A DNA stretch of 64,000 nt from Alphaproteobacteria bacterium (GTDB lineage: Bacteria; Pseudomonadota; Alphaproteobacteria; UBA2136; JAPKEQ01): positions 5,620 to 69,619 of the forward strand of contig JAPKEQ010000001.1 of assembly GCA_028821995.1 (NCBI GenBank), in the 5' to 3' direction. The position numbers were made by a program, and so were the translations under genes. How positions within the stretch are numbered: position 1 is the first letter of the stretch; every line of letters begins with the position of its first letter. The notes under the pieces are model-generated. The model was not told the DNA's origin. It did not search any database and saw only the letters and a list, made by a program, of their open reading frames with translations. Below are positions 5,305 to 41,820 of this stretch, piece by piece.

Positions 5305-6067
5305 GTTCAAAAAAATACCAAAACAAGCCGTACACCTTTGTGCGGCTTGCTTGCTTTTAGGTTGCACGCAAGTGCAAGAAGCGCCTGTAGAGAAGCCTGT
5401 AGAACAAGAAAATGCCAAACACTCTTACCTGTTTTCTGTTCAGCCACAATCTCCTCATGCAGAATTTAGCACAGCTCTTCAAAATGAGCTTAAAGCTGAC
5501 CCTCTGTTTCTTGGTACTCATGCAAGGGATGCTGGCCAACTTATCATTTCTGCAATACCTCAAATTCAAATTGACCCACTCAACAGGTCAAGAACACCAT
5601 CCTTTGGCAAGCTTGCCGCCCAAACTGTTGCACTTGAAATTCAAGTTCCTTATACATTGAGTACTTATAACGACCAAGTTTTGCACTCAGGAGAAATTCG
5701 TTACATCACAGAACCACTTCCTGTCATATCCCCAACAGTCACCATTCGCCCAGATATTCCAAAAGAAACATGGGAAGATATAAGCTCCATGCTTTTAACA
5801 GATGTTTCACCAGCCCTTGGGAATATCCCGTGGAATGCCCAAGTGATAGGCATTATTGATAGCGATCATGCCATTCTTAATATTGGCAAGGAAAGCAGAC
5901 TGCCTGCTCGCACCATCATGAAAAGCAGCGACATAACTGCCACCTTTGCAGAAATCGTGATTTATGAAAAAAATGATAGAGGTACAAGCAGAGCAGTCCT
6001 TAAACATATCAGCGGACCACCTTTTGCATCAAACATGTCATTTACACCTGTAGTTCCTTCTCAATAA
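5294..6067 (+). CDS. Hypothetical lipoprotein
   Basis: 257 aa ORF with a lipobox-like signal (CAACLLLGCTQ). No recognisable domain. Overlaps the upstream PPIase gene by 11 bp (co-transcribed). Confidence 0.55.
   Translation: MLSKFKKIPKQAVHLCAACLLLGCTQVQEAPVEKPVEQENAKHSYLFSVQPQSPHAEFSTALQNELKADPLFLGTHARDAGQLIISAIPQIQIDPLNRSRTPSFGKLAAQTVALEIQVPYTLSTYNDQVLHSGEIRYITEPLPVISPTVTIRPDIPKETWEDISSMLLTDVSPALGNIPWNAQVIGIIDSDHAILNIGKESRLPARTIMKSSDITATFAEIVIYEKNDRGTSRAVLKHISGPPFASNMSFTPVVPSQ

Positions 6068-21998: not shown

Positions 21999-22003
<5 letters not shown>
21975..22003. terminator. Rho-independent terminator (bidirectional position)
   Basis: aaaaagaggccttcgggcctctttttag. Confidence 0.8.
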
Positions 22004-26431
<4,428 letters not shown>

Positions 26432-29494: not shown

Positions 29495-30580
29495 ATGAGC
29501 AGTTGTTGCCCGCCAAAAGAACCTACAAAACCAAGCTGCTGCGGCGCCAATAGCACCTCCCAAAAGAAACGCCCTGATGTTTTATTATGGGGTTCACTTA
29601 TAGCTGTTACTGTTCTTTATGCGCTTGCTGTTGTTTTCCCTGAAACGCTCATACCTTACCCGCGCCTTATGGAAGCAGCACACGGCGTACACCACCTTGT
29701 TCATCAAATGTGGTGGGGCGTTGTCATGGGAATAATATTTGTCGGATTGATCGGTATGGTGCCACAAAAATATGTCCTCAACCTACTTGGCAATGGCGGA
29801 TCAATTTCAGGTATTATGCGCGCAACATCTGCGGGTGTACTCTTAGATATGTGCAGTCACGGAATTCTGATGGTTGGCGCAAAGCTTTACCAAAAAGGTG
29901 CAAGCCTTGGCCAGGTCATGGCCTTTTTACTCGCAAGCCCCTGGAACTCTCTTTCACTCACCATTATCCTCTGGTCGCTCATTGGTGGTTTCTGGACACT
30001 TATGTTTATCGGCCTTTCTATGGTGGTTGGCATTATCACTGGACTTATTTTTGATCGCTTGGTTAAAAAGGGCGTTTTACCACCCAATCCATTTACGCCA
30101 GAAAAGCATGAGCCTATCCACCTTATGGAAGATATGGCACATCTGCATAGATACATTCATGCAGATAAAAAGTTTCTGAAAACATTTGTATCGGAAGCAA
30201 AAAGCGGTAGCCGCGTTATCATTAAATGGCTCCTGTTTGGAATCGTGCTTGCAAGCACGCTCCGCGCTGCCTTTCCTATTGAGACGTTTGCAGGGCTTTT
30301 CGGCCCTACAGCCCTTGGCCTTGGACTCACCGTGCTGTTTGCAACTGTTCTTGAAGTGTGCTCTGAAGGCTCAACGCCAGTCGCTGCTGATATTCTAACG
30401 CGTGCTCAATCCCCAGGTAATGCCTTTGCATTCCTCATGGCAGGCGTATCTACAGATTATACAGAAATTATGATATTGAAAGATACAACAAAGAGCTGGA
30501 AGATTGCTCTCTTCCTACCCCTTGTTAGTTTGCCTCAAATTATTGCAATTGCAGCACTGATTACTGTGTTTGCTCAATAG
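29495..30580 (+). CDS. Permease of the DUF318/ArsP-like family (two-half membrane permease with a Cys-rich N-terminus)
   Basis: Cys-rich N-terminus (MSSCCPPKEPTKPSCCG) and about 8 TM in a repeated arrangement. Confidence 0.55.
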   Translation: MSSCCPPKEPTKPSCCGANSTSQKKRPDVLLWGSLIAVTVLYALAVVFPETLIPYPRLMEAAHGVHHLVHQMWWGVVMGIIFVGLIGMVPQKYVLNLLGNGGSISGIMRATSAGVLLDMCSHGILMVGAKLYQKGASLGQVMAFLLASPWNSLSLTIILWSLIGGFWTLMFIGLSMVVGIITGLIFDRLVKKGVLPPNPFTPEKHEPIHLMEDMAHLHRYIHADKKFLKTFVSEAKSGSRVIIKWLLFGIVLASTLRAAFPIETFAGLFGPTALGLGLTVLFATVLEVCSEGSTPVAADILTRAQSPGNAFAFLMAGVSTDYTEIMILKDTTKSWKIALFLPLVSLPQIIAIAALITVFAQ

Positions 30581-30980
30581 GCGTTAAAGCCTGTTCAAGA
30601 TTCTTAGAAAGCTCTTCTAAGTTTTGACGTACAGGTTCTGAATCTTTTTCAAACTGCCCCATGAGGCTTTCAAATGCTTTAAGTACACCTTGAAGCTGGC
30701 CTGCAAATCCTTGCAAGTCATCTTGAGCAGATTCTACCGCACTATTAAGTGACGACGAAGCACCATCCATGCTTCCTGTTAGCTCGCCGATCATTTGGTT
30801 ATAATCTACATTTTCATCAACATGAATTTCCTGCTGTTGCGGCGCATTACGGCTATTGGCATAATCTACAACCTGTTGCAGATCATCCTTCACTTCCGGA
30901 TTTTGAAAAAAGTGAAAAGCTAGAGTGAAAAGCCCCACACCCACAAACAATCCAACAGAAAAAATAATGACATACTTCAT
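30561..30980 (-). CDS. Hypothetical membrane-anchored protein (N-terminal TM, acidic coiled C-terminus)
   Basis: ORF with a signal anchor. No motif. Confidence 0.45.
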   Translation of the reverse strand: MKYVIIFSVGLFVGVGLFTLAFHFFQNPEVKDDLQQVVDYANSRNAPQQQEIHVDENVDYNQMIGELTGSMDGASSSLNSAVESAQDDLQGFAGQLQGVLKAFESLMGQFEKDSEPVRQNLEELSKNLEQALTPIEQTQ

Positions 30981-32038: not shown

Positions 32039-32449
32039 ATGCCCATACTTGAGTCTGAGCAGCAACTCATTGATAATTTTGAACTATTTGATAACTGGGA
32101 AGATCGGTACTCATACCTTATTGATCTTGGTAAAAAACTTCCCCCTATGGCAGAAACTCTTAAAACAGACGGGGCTCTTGTAAAGGGATGTACAAGTAAA
32201 GTATGGCTCGTTCACACCTTAAATGGAAATAAACACACATTTTTGACAGACAGCGACGCTCATATTGTAAAAGGCATTTTATATGTTTTACTCTGCCTGT
32301 TTAATGGCAAAGAAAGCACTGAAATTAAAAACATTTCCACTGAAGAGTTCATGAAGAAAACAGGCCTTGAAGAAGCCATTTCCCCAAACAGAAGAAATGG
32401 ACTCAGTGCTGTCGAACAAAAAATTAAAACTTATTCAGAAGATGCCTGA
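32039..32449 (+). CDS. sufE: Cysteine desulfuration (sulfur acceptor) protein SufE
   Basis: 136 aa with the conserved active-site Cys context ALVKGCTSKVWLV and the SufE N-terminus (LIDNFELFDNWEDRYSYLIDLGKKLP). Confidence 0.88.
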   Translation: MPILESEQQLIDNFELFDNWEDRYSYLIDLGKKLPPMAETLKTDGALVKGCTSKVWLVHTLNGNKHTFLTDSDAHIVKGILYVLLCLFNGKESTEIKNISTEEFMKKTGLEEAISPNRRNGLSAVEQKIKTYSEDA

Positions 32450-33045
32450 TCTTCAAAAAGGTCTTTTGCATCAACATTTAACAGGTAATCCAAATCCTTT
32501 ACAGCCTGATAAAACTTGCCTGGCAGAGGGTAGCGTGTCACACGTTTTGTTTTCACATCAACAACAATAAGAGATGGATGGCTTGTCACTCTAAATTTCT
32601 TAGCCAGTCTATTTCCTTGGTCCATAATAGGCTCAGGTCTGGATTCTACACGCTCAGGTTCAGAAATATTTTTAAACTCCATCTGTGCATAGTCCTTCAA
32701 GAAGGCTCTAATTTTTTCTGTATAACCTGCTTTTTCAATAAGCTCCTCTTGGTCAAACCAACGGTCTAGCCTTGCATTCTCAACAGGATCATCATCATCA
32801 CTCGCCATAACTCGCTTTTTAAAATCGTCAAGTGCATCTTGTGGAAGGTCCTTCATTACCAGAGTGGCATCAATATCAGGATGCCAAGTCCAGTACTGAA
32901 CAAACTCAAAAATCCCTCCAATAGTAGTTTCCGAAGGATCTAAGAATAAAAGAATCTTATTCTTTTGTTCTTTTTCAGCAGCGTACAGAGAAGAAGCCAT
33001 CGCTCCCACCAGTACAAAAGTCATTATCAAAATCTTTTTCATCAT
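32431..33045 (-). CDS. Hypothetical secreted protein
   Basis: Signal peptide (MTFVLVGAMASSLYAAE). No confident domain. The 3' end overlaps sufE convergently by 19 bp. Confidence 0.5.
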   Translation of the reverse strand: MMKKILIMTFVLVGAMASSLYAAEKEQKNKILLFLDPSETTIGGIFEFVQYWTWHPDIDATLVMKDLPQDALDDFKKRVMASDDDDPVENARLDRWFDQEELIEKAGYTEKIRAFLKDYAQMEFKNISEPERVESRPEPIMDQGNRLAKKFRVTSHPSLIVVDVKTKRVTRYPLPGKFYQAVKDLDYLLNVDAKDLFEDQASSE

Positions 33046-33160: not shown

Positions 33161-35119
33161 ATGAGTGAGTCAATAGAATTATGCGCATTAAGAGAGGGGT
33201 ATTGGGACCTTATAAGTACTTACCCTCCCTCTCAAGAAGGTATCGCAATTAAAGAAGCTGCTAATATCCAAACAGGGTATGCGGCGGTTGCTGTGCTTTC
33301 TGTAGAAAAAATGCACATCGCTTATTACATTACACTTAGAAATATTCCCAAGCCTACATACTATGATATTAGAAAAAGTGTAAAAGCTGAACGTCCGACC
33401 ATGCGTCAAAAAACAAAACCTAAAAAAACTGCTAAACCTGAAAATTCTCAGCATACAACAACGTCAGCATCTGTAGAGAACACACCTAAACCTGTAGCCG
33501 CAGCATTAGAAGATACTCATGAGCTAAGCTTTTTTGAAAAACTTATCGATTCACTGTTTTATCTGCTTACAGGAAAACATGTGAAAGAAAGCCCTCACTC
33601 TAAAACACAAGAAAAAGAGAGCCGTGCAACTTCTGTTACCTCCCAAGATGAACAAACCTTATCAGGTGAACCGGTAACAGCTTCTCAACAAACAGAAGAA
33701 AGCACTCTTGAAAGCCTTCTAGAAACGCAACTTGAAGAAAAATTGGATGCCAATCCCCCCTCTGAAGAGGCAGTGCCAGATGAAGAGGAAATACCCGATA
33801 CAGCACAAGCACCTGATACACATGAAGAGACAAAGGCACCACAACCTCAAGCCGAAATTTCTGCTAAAAACCCTTTCAAAGCAAAGGAAGAGCATAAAAA
33901 CACTTCCAGCCCTCTTATGCAACCGCCAGAGCGCGAAAAGAAAAACGCTGCTCTTAAAAATACAAAGGCTAGCCTGCCCAAAATTGGAGGGGGACATATT
34001 CCAAACCCTTCAACTCCACAAAAATCACAAAGCACACAAGATACAGGCACAGCTTTTTGGAACAACATTGCAGAAGATGATGATGATTTTGAAAGCATAC
34101 GTCTTCAAATTCAAAAAAGCTTATTTGGAGCCATTGAACGCGCCAAGCAGCTGGCCTGGCTACCAGAACAAAGCACAATGCGTGGCACACTACAGCTTGC
34201 ATCTATTCTTCTTATTTGCGGTATTGGTAGAAAACTTTGCTCTCATGTTGGCGTCCCTGGTGGGCTTGGCAATCAAGTCATTGCAGATACACTTGAGCAA
34301 CTCGGCCTTTCTGATAAGCAAGCTTTTATCTGCGCACTCCACGTAGATCGAATACTCAGCGATCATAAAAACAACCTCATGTATCTTATTGGCCGCGCCT
34401 ACGGAGCCAACATTTTAAACGACACGGAGCAGCGCATTGACTTGCTCAGTATTTTTAACGCATGGGAAGCTAACGAACTTGAAAAATATTTTGACGTTGA
34501 TGAAGAAAAAAACACAGCTAAACTATCTAAACTGCCTTATCTAAAAGCAATTTCTATTCTCCTTACTGACATTGTGAACTTCACAGGTCAAAGCAATGAA
34601 AAAGGTGAAAAATGGGTTAAAGATGTTGTACATGCCCATAACCGCATGACAAAAACAATAACAGTCCATCAAAAAGGAGAGTATATCCAAGGAACTGGTG
34701 ATGGCGCCCTCCTTATTTTCACATCACCCCAAGCTGCAATGCATGCCGCCCTGGAGCTTCAATTTATGCATCAAAATTTCTGCAGGCGTGTGGCAAGTAG
34801 ACATTTTGATATTAGAGTTGCCGTAAGCCACGGTATTCCTATTCAAACACAGTCAGGTTTGCATGGTCCTCCTATTGAAGAGCTACATATGATCCATAAA
34901 GAAATGGGTGATATTGGCATTGCTGTAACAAAGGGCATAGCAAATATTGCAGAGCAACACGGGTTCCAATTTAATTTAAACGAAGAGACAGCCTTCCCCA
35001 TTTATGAATTTACAACATACACAGGAGCTCATACAGTAAGCGACAAAGACCAGACAAAAGAACAACACGCTGAAACTCCCGCAGAGAAGATGCAAGAAGA
35101 AGGACAACAACACGTATGA
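33161..35119 (+). CDS. Class III nucleotidyl cyclase-domain protein A: novel N-terminal domain, long acidic low-complexity linker, C-terminal cyclase domain that appears degenerate
   Basis: C-terminal LLTDIVNFTG...GEYIQGTGDGALLIF...FDIRVAVSHGIP matches the class III cyclase homology domain. The GxxVNxAAR transition-state motif is absent. Residues 80-300 are E/P/Q/T-rich. Confidence 0.8.
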   Translation: MSESIELCALREGYWDLISTYPPSQEGIAIKEAANIQTGYAAVAVLSVEKMHIAYYITLRNIPKPTYYDIRKSVKAERPTMRQKTKPKKTAKPENSQHTTTSASVENTPKPVAAALEDTHELSFFEKLIDSLFYLLTGKHVKESPHSKTQEKESRATSVTSQDEQTLSGEPVTASQQTEESTLESLLETQLEEKLDANPPSEEAVPDEEEIPDTAQAPDTHEETKAPQPQAEISAKNPFKAKEEHKNTSSPLMQPPEREKKNAALKNTKASLPKIGGGHIPNPSTPQKSQSTQDTGTAFWNNIAEDDDDFESIRLQIQKSLFGAIERAKQLAWLPEQSTMRGTLQLASILLICGIGRKLCSHVGVPGGLGNQVIADTLEQLGLSDKQAFICALHVDRILSDHKNNLMYLIGRAYGANILNDTEQRIDLLSIFNAWEANELEKYFDVDEEKNTAKLSKLPYLKAISILLTDIVNFTGQSNEKGEKWVKDVVHAHNRMTKTITVHQKGEYIQGTGDGALLIFTSPQAAMHAALELQFMHQNFCRRVASRHFDIRVAVSHGIPIQTQSGLHGPPIEELHMIHKEMGDIGIAVTKGIANIAEQHGFQFNLNEETAFPIYEFTTYTGAHTVSDKDQTKEQHAETPAEKMQEEGQQHV

Positions 35120-36624
35120 GCATTGACCTCTGCATTTTAAGACAAGGCGCTTGGGAAATTCATTCTACTTACTCTCCGGGAGAGTCAGAAAAAGCCGTAC
35201 AAGATGCCATTCGCTACAAGCAAGAAAAAGCCTACACTGGCGTTGTTGTTATTGATGATAGAACAAAGAGCGTTTTATACGGCTATACATCTTCTGGAAA
35301 ACCAGCATTTGACACAGTGGTAAAAAGCCTTAAAGAAGGCAAAAAAAACCTACGTGTTCAAAGCATGCAAACAAACATGAAAAACAAACCTGCAAAACAA
35401 GCCGCAAGCCCAAGCACCCCAAACCCAATCCAAACCAACAGCAAGCTTAACTCTGTCATGAGCGTGAGTATGCTATCTCTCATTATTGCCGTTACCATTT
35501 TTATGGTTCTACTCAACGTATTTAATGATCTTACCTCAGCACTTGTTGGCGCTATTTTTACAGCGGTATCGGCACTTATTGCATTTAAAATAGCAAATTT
35601 TGACCCCAGCACATCCATTGAAACTGTCGCTAAAATTGTTGCTACAAAAATGCACATCGGAGCTTCTGCCGAAGCACTTGATATGGAAAATGACAACTTA
35701 AGCATTAAAGATCACATTCAAAATGTTGTAGATTCCGCCGTACAAGGGGTTTGGAATGAAGAGCAAGAAGAAGCACCAAAAGAATCTGCGCTTGGCATTA
35801 TTCTTTTATGCTCTGGCGTCATAGAACATATCCACCAGGCACAAAACTACAAACGTCTTGTACTTATTGAAATGGCGAGCGATATCATTGAAGACTCTAA
35901 ATTCTCAATTCCCAAAGCAAGCACTGTCGCTTGCTACAAAAACATACTTGAATACCTTGCCTATCCTCGTTATTCCAGCATGTACGACATGGGGTATCAA
36001 CTTTCTAAAAAATTCAGCGCTAGCAAGGATACTGAAACCCTTAACTTGCAGGTTAGCCAAGCTTTTGAAGCTTGGTCCTCTCATCAAGATGTCACAGCAA
36101 GCCACAATGCGGCCGCAGCCATTTTATTTACAGATATTGTAGATTTTACATCCACACATCAGGACCGTGGAGATAACTGGATGATGCGCATATTAAACGC
36201 GCATAACGATGCCGTACGCGAAGGCCTCCATGTTACTGGCGGACGGGAAATTAAACACACAGGAGATGGCATCATGGCATCCTTCCAGTCTGTTAAAGAT
36301 GCCCTTGATGCTGCTATTGTTGCACAACGTAAAATTAATGAATTTAACATTGCCCATGAATCTGAGCGCTTTGAAGTACGTGTCGGCATTAGCTATGGAG
36401 AGCCTGTACACATCGGAGGTGACCTTTTTGGGACACCTGTAAATAAGGCCGCTCGCGTTCTTTCTAATACTCATGGAGAAGAAATTGCAATGTCTTCAGA
36501 AGCCTGGCTTGAAGCAAAGAGCTACGGATATACTGCAAAAGAAACAACTGGGGTTGAATTCAAAGGATTTGATGGCATTCACAGCCTCTTTAAGATCAAT
36601 TGGAAAGAGGCTGAGCAAAGCTGA
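35116..36624 (+). CDS. Class III adenylate/guanylate cyclase B (paralog of A): shared N-terminal domain, TM segment(s), intact cyclase domain
   Basis: ILFTDIVDFTS...IKHTGDGIMASF...FEVRVGISYGEPVHIGGDLFGTPVNKAARV carries all class III catalytic motifs. Its start overlaps the stop of A by 4 bp. Confidence 0.88.
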   Translation: MSIDLCILRQGAWEIHSTYSPGESEKAVQDAIRYKQEKAYTGVVVIDDRTKSVLYGYTSSGKPAFDTVVKSLKEGKKNLRVQSMQTNMKNKPAKQAASPSTPNPIQTNSKLNSVMSVSMLSLIIAVTIFMVLLNVFNDLTSALVGAIFTAVSALIAFKIANFDPSTSIETVAKIVATKMHIGASAEALDMENDNLSIKDHIQNVVDSAVQGVWNEEQEEAPKESALGIILLCSGVIEHIHQAQNYKRLVLIEMASDIIEDSKFSIPKASTVACYKNILEYLAYPRYSSMYDMGYQLSKKFSASKDTETLNLQVSQAFEAWSSHQDVTASHNAAAAILFTDIVDFTSTHQDRGDNWMMRILNAHNDAVREGLHVTGGREIKHTGDGIMASFQSVKDALDAAIVAQRKINEFNIAHESERFEVRVGISYGEPVHIGGDLFGTPVNKAARVLSNTHGEEIAMSSEAWLEAKSYGYTAKETTGVEFKGFDGIHSLFKINWKEAEQS

Positions 36625-36737: not shown

Positions 36738-37202
36738 ATGATGAAGCTGAGTAAGATGTCAGATTATGCCGTTGTCATGATGACTCTCATGGGTGCGGAC
36801 CCTCTCGCAAATCACACAGCAACTACAGTTGCAGAAAAAAGCGGCCTTACGGTTCCTACTGTAAGAAAACTCATGAAGATGCTTTCAAAGGCTGGTCTAT
36901 TAAACTCCACACGTGGTGTTAATGGTGGCTATACCTTTGCTAAAAACCCAAACATGATTAATGTCTCTGAAATTATTGAAGCTGTTGATGGCCCTATTGC
37001 TATGACCACATGCCTTGACCGCACACAAACAACTTGTGTTATGGATAGCCACTGCCCAACAAAAGATCGTTGGCACGTGATAAATGACGCTGTACGCACA
37101 GCCCTACAAGCGGTAACACTTGGCCAATTTATTGAACCAACAAATCCGCTGGTTCGTGTTGAATTTGATGAAGAATGTAAAGATAATGCCTGCAATGTCT
37201 AA
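36738..37202 (+). CDS. Rrf2-family transcriptional regulator (IscR/SufR-like) preceding the suf operon
   Basis: [17 protein letters not shown]...[30 protein letters not shown] wHTH, plus clustered Cys ([15 protein letters not shown]) for an Fe-S ligand. Confidence 0.88.
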
Positions 37203-38643
37203 CGATACCTACGGCTCTAAAGAAGCCACTTCTGGCGATTATCAGTACGGTTTTGCTACTGATATCGAAATGGAATATGCCCCAAAGGGCCTTAATGAAG
37301 ATATCATTCGCTTTATTAGCGCCAAAAAGAACGAGCCTGAATGGATGCTTGAATGGCGCCTTAAATCTTATAAAATTTGGAAAAGCAAAGCAGAGCCAAA
37401 ATGGGCGATGGTTGATTACCCGCCTATCGATTTTAATGATATTTATTACTATGCAGCACCTAAAAGCCAAGAAGATGGACCTAAAAGCCTAGATGAGGTT
37501 GATCCTGAACTTCTTAGAACTTATGAGAAACTTGGCATTCCCCTTCATGAGCAAGAAATCCTTGCAGGCGTTGCCGTAGACGCTGTTTTTGACAGTGTGT
37601 CTGTTGCAACAACGTTTAAAGATAAACTTGCAGAAGCGGGGGTTATTTTTTGCCCAATTAGCGAAGCCATTCAAGAACACCCTGAGCTTATTCAAAAATA
37701 TCTCGGTAGCGTCGTTCCACAAACAGACAATGCTTACGCTGCTCTTAATGGTGCCGTCTTTACAGATGGTTCATTTGTTTACATCCCTGAAGGCGTGCGC
37801 TGCCCTATGGAGCTCTCAACATATTTCCGTATCAACGCCCTTAATACAGGTCAGTTTGAGCGCACACTTATCATTGCCGATAAAGGCAGTTACGTCAGCT
37901 ATCTAGAAGGCTGCACTGCGCCTATGCGTGACGAAAATCAGCTCCACGCCGCGGTAGTAGAACTTGTTGCCCTTGATGACGCCGAAATTAAATATTCTAC
38001 AGTCCAAAACTGGTACCCAGGCAATGAAGAAGGCAAAGGCGGAATTTATAACTTTGTAACAAAACGTGCAGACTGTATCGGTAAAAATAGTAAAGTAACT
38101 TGGATACAAGTTGAGACAGGGAGCGCCATCACTTGGAAGTACCCGTCTTGCATCCTAACTGGTGACGGCAGCTCTGGTAAGTTCCTCAGCGTTGCTGTAA
38201 CGCGCCTCAAACAGCAAGCTGATACAGGGAGTAAAATGATTCACATTGGTAAAAATACCAAGAGTACCATCATCTCTAAAGGCATTAGCGCTGAGCGCGG
38301 AGAAAACACTTACCGTGGCCGTGTGGCTGTTATGAATAGCGCTAAAGGTGCGCGTAACTACACCCAATGTGACAGTATGCTTATTGGTAATAATTGCGCT
38401 GCTCACACCGTGCCTTATATTGATGTTAAAACATCAGATGCACAGGTGGAGCACGAAGCAACAACCTCTAAAATTAGTGAAGAGCAAATGTTCTATTTGC
38501 GCCAACGCGGCATGACAGAAGAGGACGCTGTGAGTATGATTGTGAACGGGTTTGCAAAAGATGTTCTGCAGGAGCTTCCAATGGAATTTGCAGTAGAAGC
38601 ACAAAAACTTCTCGGAATTACACTTGAAAATAGCGTTGGCTAG
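37186..38643 (+). CDS. sufB: Fe-S cluster assembly scaffold SufB
   Basis: About 485 aa with conserved SufB core segments ([26 protein letters not shown], ...[16 protein letters not shown]...). Confidence 0.93.
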
Positions 38644-38660
38644 TAATAAGGAAAAAAGCA

Positions 38661-39410
38661 ATGATTGAAATCAAAAACCTACACGCTCGCGTGGATGACA
38701 AAGAAATTCTCAAAGGCCTTAGCCTGACTATTCCTAATGGTGAAGTTCATGCCATCATGGGCCCAAACGGTGCTGGTAAGAGTACTCTTGCCAATGTTAT
38801 TTCTGGCAAGGATGGCTATGAAATTACTGAAGGTGATATTCTTTTCCACGGGCAAAGCGTACTTGAAATGGAGCCTGAAGAACGTGCTCATCTTGGCCTC
38901 TTCCTTGCTTTCCAATACCCTGTAGAAATTCCTGGTGTAAACAGCATGACATTCCTACGTACAGCCCTTAATGCTAAACGTAAGGCAAATGGTGAAGCTG
39001 AACTAGACGGCGCAGAATTTCTTCGCATTGTTAAAACAGCCATGAAAAATCTTAAAATCAAAGATGACTTCCTGAAACGTTCTGTTAACGTTGGTTTTTC
39101 AGGCGGTGAGAAAAAACGTTTTGAAATCCTTCAGATGCAAGTGCTAAGCCCAACTTTTGCTGTACTTGATGAAACAGATTCAGGCCTTGATATTGATGCC
39201 CTTAAAGTGGTGGCTGAAGGCGTAAACATGCTCCGAGATCCTTCTCGTAGCTTTCTTGTTATTACGCACTACCAGCGTCTTCTTGATTATATTGAACCTG
39301 ATGTCGTGCATATTCTCGCAGATGGTAAAATTCAAAAAACAGGTGATAAAAACCTTGCCCTTGAACTTGAAGAAAAAGGTTATGACGCCGTGATCGGGGA
39401 TGCAGCCTAA
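38661..39410 (+). CDS. sufC: Fe-S cluster assembly ATPase SufC
   Basis: ABC ATPase with GPNGAGKSTL Walker A, LSGGEKKR signature and LDETDSGLD Walker B. Confidence 0.95.
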   Translation: MIEIKNLHARVDDKEILKGLSLTIPNGEVHAIMGPNGAGKSTLANVISGKDGYEITEGDILFHGQSVLEMEPEERAHLGLFLAFQYPVEIPGVNSMTFLRTALNAKRKANGEAELDGAEFLRIVKTAMKNLKIKDDFLKRSVNVGFSGGEKKRFEILQMQVLSPTFAVLDETDSGLDIDALKVVAEGVNMLRDPSRSFLVITHYQRLLDYIEPDVVHILADGKIQKTGDKNLALELEEKGYDAVIGDAA

Positions 39411-40612
39411 TGACGCTGATTGACACACTTAAAAGCACTCTGGCAGACGATACATCTGCCAATGCTAAGCTCTTTTTAGACAATGGTATTCCTACGCCTA
39501 AAATTGAGAAATGGCATTACACAAATTTAAATAACATCATGCGCACAACATGGCCATTTCAAAAGGCTAGCCACGCAAGCCAACAGTCTTGCGGCGAAAG
39601 TGACATTCGTTTTTTTGATGGCCACGCTACAGTTTGCAGTGTACCAGATGGCGTGACGATTCTTGCAGAGCGTGAAGCCTCAGCCCACCCAATTTTGCAA
39701 AGCATGCGTACGCAGGAGTTTTCAAAAAGAGATGAAAGCCTGGCCGCGCTCTCACATAGCCAAAGCACGCCCCTCTTTATTCTTGTTGATAAGAAGGTTG
39801 AAGCCACCTTGGTTTTAGAAAATTTCAGCATGCTCAAGGAGTCAGTGAACTTCCCTCACCTTTGTATCGCGGTTACAGAAGCTGCCAGCCTTACACTTTC
39901 TAGCCACAGCCATAGCGCTGGCGAAGCATGGAGCAATATTCTTACTCAAATCCATATTGCAAATGACGCAAGCCTTACACTTATGAACCTGCAAAACGAG
40001 CGCAAAGATACCGCTCATACATCCCATACATTTATTCAAGCAGAAGAAGGCAGCGCGCTTAATATTTATGGCATGAATATTGGTGGATCACTGGGACGAC
40101 AAACCATAGATATTGATCTTAATGGTAAAAATATTCAAACCAATATTGCTGCTGCAAACCTTGCAGATGGCAAACAAACACAAGACTTTACAATCCACAT
40201 GAATCACAATCATCCTTCCTGTGATACAAATGTATTTTCTCGTAATGTATGCCGCGGTCGGGGGCAAAGCGTATTCCAAGGTAAGTTCTATGTGGCACAG
40301 CAAGCTCAGCAAACAGATGCAGAAATGAGCTGCAAATCTCTACTGCTCTCTGATCGCGCACGCGCTGATAGTAAACCTGAACTTGAAATTTATGCAGACG
40401 ATGTAAAATGCGGACATGGAGCAACAGTAGGTACGCTTGATAGTGAATCTCTTTTCTATCTTATGGCACGTGGCGTTCCACGCAAGGACGCTGAAAATCT
40501 ACTGGTAGAAGGCTTTATTGAAGAGATGCTGACACGCATACCCGATGATGCAACAGCTAAAATTTGGCGCGCTCATTTTGCTGCATGGCTTGCGGCAACA
40601 TACGAAGGGTAG
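39410..40612 (+). CDS. sufD: Fe-S cluster assembly protein SufD
   Basis: Position between sufC and sufS, and the C-terminal SufB/D beta-helix motifs (ELEIYADDVKCGHGATVG...). Confidence 0.85.
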   Translation: MTLIDTLKSTLADDTSANAKLFLDNGIPTPKIEKWHYTNLNNIMRTTWPFQKASHASQQSCGESDIRFFDGHATVCSVPDGVTILAEREASAHPILQSMRTQEFSKRDESLAALSHSQSTPLFILVDKKVEATLVLENFSMLKESVNFPHLCIAVTEAASLTLSSHSHSAGEAWSNILTQIHIANDASLTLMNLQNERKDTAHTSHTFIQAEEGSALNIYGMNIGGSLGRQTIDIDLNGKNIQTNIAAANLADGKQTQDFTIHMNHNHPSCDTNVFSRNVCRGRGQSVFQGKFYVAQQAQQTDAEMSCKSLLLSDRARADSKPELEIYADDVKCGHGATVGTLDSESLFYLMARGVPRKDAENLLVEGFIEEMLTRIPDDATAKIWRAHFAAWLAATYEG

Positions 40613-40617
40613 CCGCT

Positions 40618-41820
40618 GTGGAAAGCTTTAAGCACCACTTCCCTATTTTTGAAAACGAGAGTAACCAAGCTCTTGCTTATTTTGACAGCGCCTCAAGCGC
40701 TCAAAAACCGAAGCACGTTATTGAAGTTATGAATCGTTTCCAAACATCATCTTACGCCAATGTGCACCGCGGCCTATATAGGCTCTCTGCTGAATCTACA
40801 ACAGCCTATGAAAATGCACGAAGAACCGTTGCAAATTTTATTGGTACAGATGAAAATCATATTGTATTTACACGCAGCGCCACTGAAGCTATTAACCTTA
40901 TAGCCAATACTTGGGGTACGCAGCATATTAAGGCTGGCGACATCATTCTCCTCACTGAAATGGAGCACCATGCCAATATTGTGCCTTGGGTTATGCTTGC
41001 AAAACAGGCTGGTGCTAAAGTAGAGTATGCCTCGCTTCTACCTGATGGCTCACTTGATATGAAATCTTATGAAAAAGCTCTAGAGAACAATCCTAAACTT
41101 GTCGCTTTTACTCATGTTTCTAATGTTTTAGGCACCATTAATTCTGTTAAAGATATGGTTTCACAGGCGCATAATGCTGGTGCAATAACTGTTATTGACG
41201 GCAGTCAAGCTGCACCTCATATAAGACTTAATATGGTAGATATTGATAGCGATTTTTACGTTTTCACAGGCCATAAAAATTATGGCCCTACAGGCACGGG
41301 TGTTCTCTACGGTAAAAAAGAGCTTCTAGACGCAATGCCTCCTTGGCAAGGCGGCGGTGACATGATTGAAACTGTCGCATTTGATAATATTACCTTTGCA
41401 AAAGCTCCTGCAAAATTTGAAGCAGGCACACCCAATATTGTTGGCACTGTTGGCCTTGCTGCTTCTATTGAGTTTTTAAATGCGCTCGGATGGGGTGTAA
41501 TTGAAACCCATGAAAAAGCGTTATCAGAAAAGCTAGAAGCAGAACTTATAAATTTTAACGGCCTTACGCTCTATAGCCGCGCTGTAAATAAAATTGGCGT
41601 CTTTTCTTTTAATTTAAACGGCATCCACAGCAGTGACGTTGCTATGGTTCTTGATAAATGCAACGTTGCCGTCCGTACAGGGCACCATTGCGCCCAGCCC
41701 CTTATGAAAGCACTTGGTACAGAACATACCATTCGTGCAAGTATTGGCCTTAGTACAACTGAAGACGATATTGACCAGCTTATTTCATCACTGCACAAAG
41801 CTCAAAAGATGCTAGGTTAG
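40618..41820 (+). CDS. sufS: Cysteine desulfurase SufS (class V aminotransferase). GTG start assumed; alternative ATG at 40585
   Basis: PLP-Lys context FYVFTGHKNYGPTGTGVLYG and the active-site Cys loop RTGHHCAQPLM. Confidence 0.92.
   Translation: MESFKHHFPIFENESNQALAYFDSASSAQKPKHVIEVMNRFQTSSYANVHRGLYRLSAESTTAYENARRTVANFIGTDENHIVFTRSATEAINLIANTWGTQHIKAGDIILLTEMEHHANIVPWVMLAKQAGAKVEYASLLPDGSLDMKSYEKALENNPKLVAFTHVSNVLGTINSVKDMVSQAHNAGAITVIDGSQAAPHIRLNMVDIDSDFYVFTGHKNYGPTGTGVLYGKKELLDAMPPWQGGGDMIETVAFDNITFAKAPAKFEAGTPNIVGTVGLAASIEFLNALGWGVIETHEKALSEKLEAELINFNGLTLYSRAVNKIGVFSFNLNGIHSSDVAMVLDKCNVAVRTGHHCAQPLMKALGTEHTIRASIGLSTTEDDIDQLISSLHKAQKMLG

Follow-up and report, generated by a model that had tools for sequence, protein, structure and literature searches.

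A conserved, catalytically degenerate class III cyclase paralogue encoded in overlap with a canonical cyclase gene: a candidate subunit of a bacterial heterodimer

The DNA analysed here, a stretch of 64,000 nucleotides (nt) referred to as the window (positions 5,620 to 69,619 of contig JAPKEQ010000001.1, assembly GCA_028821995.1, Alphaproteobacteria bacterium), carries two overlapping open reading frames (ORFs), A and B, which code for two class III cyclase homologues. ORF B encodes a canonical, membrane-anchored enzyme of the adenylyl cyclase type, while in the soluble product of ORF A five of the seven catalytic residues are replaced and only the two metal-binding Asp are kept. This altered set of residues recurs in all five orthologues of A, and A lies directly upstream of B in every relative examined. 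On the pattern of kept and lost residues, it seems somewhat probable that A acts as a subunit comparable to the C1 half of mammalian adenylyl cyclases, pairing with B in a dimer with one active and one degenerate site. The features of the two frames are given below, where pLDDT stands for the predicted local distance difference test score of AlphaFold2 models and dN/dS for the ratio of nonsynonymous to synonymous substitution rates, obtained by comparing the window with a 90%-identical locus (L008).

33161..35119, + strand: ORF A, 652 amino acids (aa), a soluble, catalytically degenerate class III cyclase paralogue (putative pseudo-cyclase), assigned from the ORF, the PF00211 match and the orthologues.
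33161..33397, + strand: A residues 1-79, N-terminal beta-beta-alpha-beta-beta-alpha domain, common to B and the wider family (pLDDT 88-96; dN/dS 0.039).
33398..34075, + strand: A residues 80-305, low-complexity linker, predicted to be disordered from composition, pLDDT <50, identity, dN/dS (0.35) and the charge-hydropathy plot.
34076..34525, + strand: A residues 306-455, all-helical middle domain, common to B and the family (26% identity to B 189-330; dN/dS 0.014).
34526..35020, + strand: A residues 456-620, cyclase-homology domain, predicted to be complete in fold (alignments, Foldseek, orthologues; dN/dS 0.06).
35116..35119, + strand: ATGA, the 4-nt overlap of the A stop codon and the B start codon, read from the sequence.
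35116..36624, + strand: ORF B, 502 aa, a canonical membrane-anchored class III adenylyl-cyclase-type enzyme (PF00211, Ma1120 match, residue mapping).
35116-35340, + strand: B N-terminal domain, from the family architecture.
35443..35601, + strand: B residues about 110-162, two hydrophobic segments predicted to form a transmembrane hairpin (Kyte-Doolittle), with no counterpart in A.
About 35671-36090, + strand: B middle domain, from the family architecture.
36091..36606, + strand: B residues 326-497, catalytic cyclase-homology domain (PF00211, phmmer, MAFFT; dN/dS 0.10).

The match of A to PF00211 is weak (23.1 bits, with the Pfam gathering threshold at 21.9) and confined to profile positions 7-110 of 183, whereas the match of B extends across the profile and reaches 57.8 bits. 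For both proteins Ma1120, an adenylyl cyclase of Mycobacterium avium, is the closest solved relative (phmmer; E=3e-19 for B), and PDB entries 1ybt/1ybu (Rv1900c) are also among the sequence or structure matches of both (phmmer; Foldseek for A). In BLASTP comparisons A 4-91 aligns with B 2-96 at 31% identity (E=3e-9) and A 309-574 with B 189-444 at 26% identity, and both proteins follow the same order of N-terminal domain, spacer, helical middle domain and class III cyclase domain. A and B are, by these alignments, paralogues over their whole length. An AGGA sequence lies at 35101-35104, upstream of the ORF B start. The ATGA overlap points to translational coupling of A and B, and the overlap of the two genes suggests that they are co-expressed.

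The reference for the catalytic residues was Ma1120, in which K101 and D157 bind the base, A164 occupies the transition-state Asn slot and R168 is the transition-state Arg (PMC4215837). The residues of A and B were mapped in four independent alignments, that is BLASTP of A against B, phmmer against Ma1120, MAFFT with 21 sequences and a phmmer-seeded alignment of 266 domains, all of which gave the identical result. B holds the full set of seven residues (D340, K380, D384, D436, N443, R447 and K483, the last being the Lys of the C-terminal 'EFKGF' strand), and its substrate-specifying pair, K380/D436, is of the ATP type. In A the two metal-binding Asp, D470 (34568-34570) and D514 (34700-34702), are kept, being invariant across orthologues, together with the beta1-alpha1 phosphate loop; the other five of the seven residues are replaced. 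Q510 (34688-34690) stands in the substrate Lys slot, G566 (34856-34858) in the substrate Asp slot, E573 (34877-34879) in the transition-state Asn slot, M577 (34889-34891; M, I or V in orthologues) in the transition-state Arg slot, and T618 (35012-35014; T or S in orthologues) in the phosphate Lys slot. The pair Q510/G566 corresponds neither to the Lys/Asp that specifies ATP nor to the Glu/Cys-type pair that specifies GTP, and E573 and M577 take the place of the transition-state Asn and Arg on helix alpha4.

An automated reading of the sequence that preceded this analysis (the original prediction) had proposed that A retains both metal-binding Asp and lacks the Asn/Arg motif. The motifs on which it relied are all present, namely LTDIVNFT at residues 468-475, GTGDGALLIF at 511-520 and HGPPIEELHMIHKEMGD at 568-584 of A, and FGTPVNKAARV in B. 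The proposal is borne out and proved an understatement, since both substrate-specifying residues and the phosphate Lys are gone as well. The same prediction had allowed for Asn and Arg being retained in A at shifted positions; neither was found within residues 560-585 of A in the window. The sole conserved basic residue nearby is K580 (K/R/R in orthologues), three positions past the Arg slot.

In the mammalian C1·C2 structures, the work of Tesmer and colleagues from 1999, one subunit is reported to provide both Asp, and its partner the remaining five residues. A would therefore keep exactly the C1-type contribution and none of the C2-type. The complementarity is one-sided, as A has the Asp pair only, while B has all C2-type residues plus its own Asp pair; if five of the seven residues were lost at random, the chance of this particular split would be about 1 in 21.

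The loss of these residues is not accompanied by a predicted loss of fold. Full-length A was modelled with AlphaFold2 from an alignment of 104 family members, and the model reaches a pLDDT of about 90 or higher over most of residues 1-79, 304-445 and 460-620. Its cyclase domain matches Ma1120 (4wp8_B) with a target-normalised template-modelling score (TM-score) of 0.83 over 164 aligned columns of 166 residues (Foldseek, E=3e-11), and E573 and M577 lie at i and i+4 of the helix formed by residues 570-581, the places of the Asn and the Arg. The cyclase-homology fold (beta-alpha-beta-beta-alpha-beta) is complete in the model, so that the weak Pfam match of A would reflect sequence divergence of the C-terminal half rather than truncation. 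The Rv1264 holoenzyme was also matched by the full-length model in Foldseek, at a root-mean-square deviation of 15-17 Å, and gives no evidence of a common regulatory domain.

Five orthologues of A, 55-94% identical, were identified. A word-indexed homologue search with the full-length protein returned these five only and missed B itself, and an exhaustive HMMER search was used instead. Residues 306-652, searched against 1.84 billion representative proteins, gave one A-type cluster followed only by canonical cyclases with at most 27% identity. The signature D-Q-D-G-E-[M/I/V] is found in six of six A proteins, where a nearly invariant SGLHGP.IEEL replaces the GDLFGTPVN.AAR motif at the start of the Asn/Arg helix. 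The reading D-K-D-D-[N/Q]-R is shared by roughly 220 of the 266 homologous domains, and D-Q-D-G-E-x is restricted to the six A proteins. In a bootstrapped neighbour-joining tree, A forms a long, well-supported branch inside the family.

Purifying selection on the cyclase domain of A is strong. For the same genome pairs the cyclase domains of A are 83% and 70% identical, versus 76% and 67% for those of B, and the dN/dS of the cyclase domain is 0.06 in A versus 0.10 in B. The linker presents a different picture, with 27-31% identity between A orthologues versus 70-83% for the folded domains, and the dN/dS values of the A regions range from 0.014 in the middle domain and 0.039 in the N-terminal domain to 0.35 in the linker. 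These substitution patterns indicate that A is functional and that purifying selection actively preserves its degenerate site. The explanation of A as a pseudogene or an assembly artefact was ruled out, as an intact ORF with low dN/dS is conserved in six assemblies. The description of A as a catalytically degenerate cyclase paralogue, made in the original prediction, hence stands, with the addition that the gene is conserved and selected rather than decaying.

A lies directly upstream of B, overlapping or abutting it, in all six assemblies examined, the relatives spanning 55-90% identity. The junctions in the relatives are as follows.

L008: 4-nt overlap of A and B.
L001 and L002: 11-nt overlap.
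L003 and L004: 3-nt gap.
L010: 3-nt gap; A is truncated here at the end of the contig.

Each of these relatives, which are labelled "Pseudomonadota bacterium" or "uncultured Magnetococcales bacterium" in the source records, has the same neighbours, in the order SufE, an ORF of about 200 aa on the other strand, A, B, Rrf2 and SufBCDS. A without B was never found among the assemblies examined. Four full-length family members that are more distant, being about 30% identical to B, each occur as a single gene among unrelated neighbours and hold canonical residues.

Class III cyclases need residues of both subunits for catalysis, and in the mammalian enzymes the degenerate sites have a regulatory role (PMC8815786, PMC9552081). 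In the arrangement that we favour, A would be made together with B from the overlapping reading frames and would then pair with it, supplying the catalytic metal ligands; the original prediction had cast A as a putative regulatory subunit. The competent site of such an A:B dimer would consist of D470 and D514 of A and K380, D436, N443, R447 and K483 of B, and the residues lost from A would be those of the subunit that binds the base, the ribose and the alpha and gamma phosphates in a head-to-tail dimer. At the dead pseudo-symmetric site, the Asp pair of B would face the invariant Q510, G566 and E573 of A; this site may be a regulatory pocket comparable to the forskolin site of mammalian C1/C2. 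The heterodimer fits the observations best, as the kept and lost residues match the model, the metal ligands, which an inhibitor or scaffold could do without, are conserved, the two genes are strictly coupled, and A is absent where the family is single-copy. The very strong constraint on the N-terminal and middle domains of A would fit a pairing along the whole length of the proteins.

Several points weigh against this proposal. K580 could conceivably reach the active site of A, and non-canonical residues need not kill activity, as is seen in Ma1120, an active enzyme whose Asn slot holds Ala (PMC4215837). The fold of A rests on an AlphaFold2 alignment dominated by canonical cyclases. In the neighbour-joining tree A is not the sister of the resident B (4/100 bootstraps); its sister group is not settled by this tree, and we therefore make no claim of a recent duplication from B. 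Furthermore, B does not appear to need A, and A could equally be an attenuator. The original prediction had called the heterodimer obligate, a term that could apply at most to A: B has all seven residues, like its single-gene relatives, and with its own metal Asp pair is presumably able to form homodimers.

One rival idea is that A is a brake, whose pairing with B would chiefly reduce the activity or change its location. With only one site and one membrane anchor, where the B homodimer would have two of each, and perhaps with an unproductive geometry, the heterodimer would be less active than that homodimer. We regard this as unlikely, though it deserves to be taken seriously. In its favour, activity of B homodimers is to be expected from the full residue set of B and from its single-gene relatives, the membrane hairpin is missing from A, and the linkage data fit a brake as well as they fit a C1-like subunit. 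A pure inhibitor, however, needs no invariant D470, D514 and phosphate loop over 55% divergence, and their retention argues for binding of metal-ATP. Somewhat less likely still is a role of A without pairing of its cyclase domain to B, as a homodimeric non-catalytic sensor of metal-nucleotide or a scaffold, in which conserved motifs of the linker (LSFFEKLIDSLFYLLTG, ISAKNPF and LPKIGGGHIPNP) would recruit other proteins. Purifying selection on every domain of a soluble protein, the invariant Q510/G566/E573 and the conserved linker islands would all suit a new function of its own, but such a role leaves unexplained why precisely the C1-type residues are retained, why A and B are constantly linked in translation and why A is absent where the family is single-copy.

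An autonomous activity of A, as a nucleotidyl cyclase or a related enzyme in which K580 or a nearby His stands in for the Arg and the Gln/Gly pair confers an altered substrate specificity, appears highly improbable. Ma1120 works without the Asn, other homologues deviate at single positions and K580 is conserved as K/R; yet A departs from the canonical set at five of the seven positions together, the Arg and both Lys among them, a Glu occupies the ribose-binding Asn slot, and the combination occurs in none of the other 260 related domains.

The heterodimer envisaged for A and B recalls mammalian C1/C2 (Tesmer et al. 1997/1999; reviewed in PMC9552081 and PMC8815786), in which one active and one degenerate pseudo-symmetric site arose by duplication of a homodimeric ancestor, with C1, like A, giving the two metal Asp and C2, like B, giving the Lys/Asp pair, the Asn/Arg pair and the phosphate Lys. 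The mammalian enzyme differs in being a fused chain in which both halves are degenerate and dimerisation is truly obligate, whereas A and B are two overlapping genes of which only A is degenerate. The dead half-site of A is also more thoroughly altered than that of C1, and A has no membrane anchor. C1 keeps its Lys and Asp. Among bacterial class III enzymes with one competent site, M. tuberculosis Rv1900c, studied by Sinha and colleagues in 2005, is reportedly an asymmetric homodimer in which only one of two sites is competent; there the asymmetry is conformational, between identical chains, and no degenerate paralogue is involved. The alpha and beta subunits of soluble guanylyl cyclase (PMC3591389) are, like A and B, separately encoded homologues that form one catalytic and one pseudo-symmetric site, but this enzyme is eukaryotic, regulated through haem and nitric oxide and GTP-specific, its subunits are mutually dependent, and the kinship is limited to the class III fold. 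Ma1120 (PDB 4wp8/4wp9; PMC4215837) has the same compact type of cyclase-homology domain and tolerates A164, but it forms an active homodimer and has K101, D157 and R168, none of which has its equivalent in A.

An experimental analogy comes from engineered complementary mutants of Rv1625c (Guo et al. 2001, cited in PMC9552081), in which a subunit with the metal Asp only and one with the Asn/Arg only rebuild one active site. That pair is artificial, and A and B would be a natural counterpart of the same logic. In a recent review, bacterial class III cyclases are described as homodimers with two active sites, to which each monomer makes an equal contribution (PMC9552081), and heterodimers with a catalytic and a regulatory site are known mainly from higher eukaryotes (PMC8815786). 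No description of a natural heterodimeric or pseudo-cyclase counterpart in bacteria was found in the literature, our coverage of which was incomplete. On this background we tentatively put forward, with slightly less than even confidence, the broader view that A and B are a natural two-gene bacterial heterodimeric cyclase, an independent replay of the C1/C2 duplication and half-site degeneration, in which ligands would bind to the Q510/G566/E573 pocket as a regulatory site and the linker motifs would provide places for docking. If true, the conserved coupled pair would offer a simple bacterial system for the evolution of half-site degeneration after duplication, and for asking what a dead pseudo-symmetric site does. 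The evidence is purely computational and the clade narrow and uncultured, so that the practical impact is modest.

The linker of A (residues 80-305) consists to 69% of E, T, K, S, P, A and Q (12.8, 11.5, 10.2, 9.7, 9.3, 8.8 and 6.6%, respectively), with a net charge of -11, an isoelectric point of 5.2 and a grand average of hydropathy of -1.12, and falls on the disordered side of the charge-hydropathy boundary. The AlphaFold2 pLDDT is below 50 at residues 80-120, 143-174 and 196-298, and a repeat scan of the linker detected no tandem repeats. Composition and model agree in confirming the predicted intrinsic disorder of residues 80-305. As for the acidic, Glu/Pro/Gln/Thr-rich disordered linker that had originally been described, the disorder and these components of the composition hold, but the linker is also rich in Lys and Ser and only mildly acidic. 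Its likening to an effector is contradicted by the family, in which canonical members often have acidic Ala/Glu/Pro-rich spacers of 200-250 aa. The possibility that A is a secreted effector was ruled out, as it has no signal peptide, its N-terminal domain is cytoplasmic as in B, and the locus lies among housekeeping genes. One conserved element stands out inside the linker.

33524..33574, + strand: predicted amphipathic helix LSFFEKLIDSLFYLLTG, A residues 122-138, conserved, inside the linker.

The helix proper (residues 124-137) has a pLDDT near 78, the only linker element of this kind, and a hydrophobic moment of 0.52, and F124, Y134, L135, T137 and G138 are invariant across A orthologues. 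Further conserved islands are LLETQLEE, ISAKNPF and LPKIGGGHIPNP. Helix 122-138 may be an element that lies on the membrane surface or docks a partner.

Kyte-Doolittle windows of 19 residues exceed 1.5 at residues 110-130 and 138-144 of B and nowhere in A, where the maximum is 1.35. Two or three hydrophobic segments are present in 98/98 family members other than A and in none of the six A proteins. What is peculiar to A, on these profiles, is therefore the loss of the transmembrane hairpin of the family and not its long linker.

The wider cyclase family to which A and B belong (proteins P0010-P0125) is sizeable and mostly alphaproteobacterial, and has an undescribed architecture. An N-terminal domain of about 75-90 aa with the order beta-beta-alpha-beta-beta is followed by a basic spacer, the transmembrane hairpin, an acidic Ala/Glu/Pro-rich spacer, a helical middle domain of about 150 aa and the cyclase domain; the stretch from the N-terminal to the middle domain often takes 200-270 aa in canonical members. 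Neither the N-terminal nor the middle domain corresponds to any Pfam or NCBIfam family in A, B or 77 family members. A separate AlphaFold2 model of the middle domain of A has a pLDDT of 89.2 and a predicted TM-score of 0.84, and Foldseek found no PDB fold match to it at E<=0.001. The family also has, in these two domains, well-folded uncharacterised parts, besides its transmembrane hairpin as a possible receiver of signals.

Gln occupies the transition-state Asn slot (D-K-D-D-Q-R) in about 114 of the 266 related cyclase domains, for instance in P0018 and P0087, and seems to be widespread in the family as a natural variant. Separately from the A/B pair, several metagenomic chains of 350-420 aa contain two cyclase-homology domains each (P0142, P0170, P0179, P0220, P0227 and P0254). 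In P0142 (locus L009, 2080-3345) the defects of the two domains look complementary, A-K-D-D-V-R and D-K-D-D-V-E; the genes on its 4-kb contig are compactly spaced, in a prokaryote-like manner. According to a 2022 review (PMC9552081), no fused dimeric class III cyclase is known from bacteria.

In the window, the cyclase pair and a divergent ORF of 204 aa are placed between sufE (32039-32449) and the operon of Rrf2, SufB, SufC, SufD and SufS (36738-41820), an arrangement shared by relatives with as little as 55% identity. Family members at a greater distance are located elsewhere, next to enolase and ftsB/DivIC, so that a functional link between the cyclases and iron-sulfur (Fe-S) cluster assembly is not indicated. 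Rfam and promoter/terminator scans gave nothing relevant. The 204-aa ORF (32431-33045, - strand), directly upstream of A, has a hydrophobic, signal-peptide-like N-terminus and no Pfam match, and is kept in place in all relatives at a length of 196-219 aa. Another ORF, of 139 aa (30561-30980, - strand), with one N-terminal hydrophobic helix, is conserved in synteny and resembles apolipoprotein and WXG100 helical repeats only weakly, below threshold. A Stf0-type sulfotransferase (21999-22724, - strand; PF09037, E=3e-56) adjoins ligA and recN and is atypical among the surrounding housekeeping genes.

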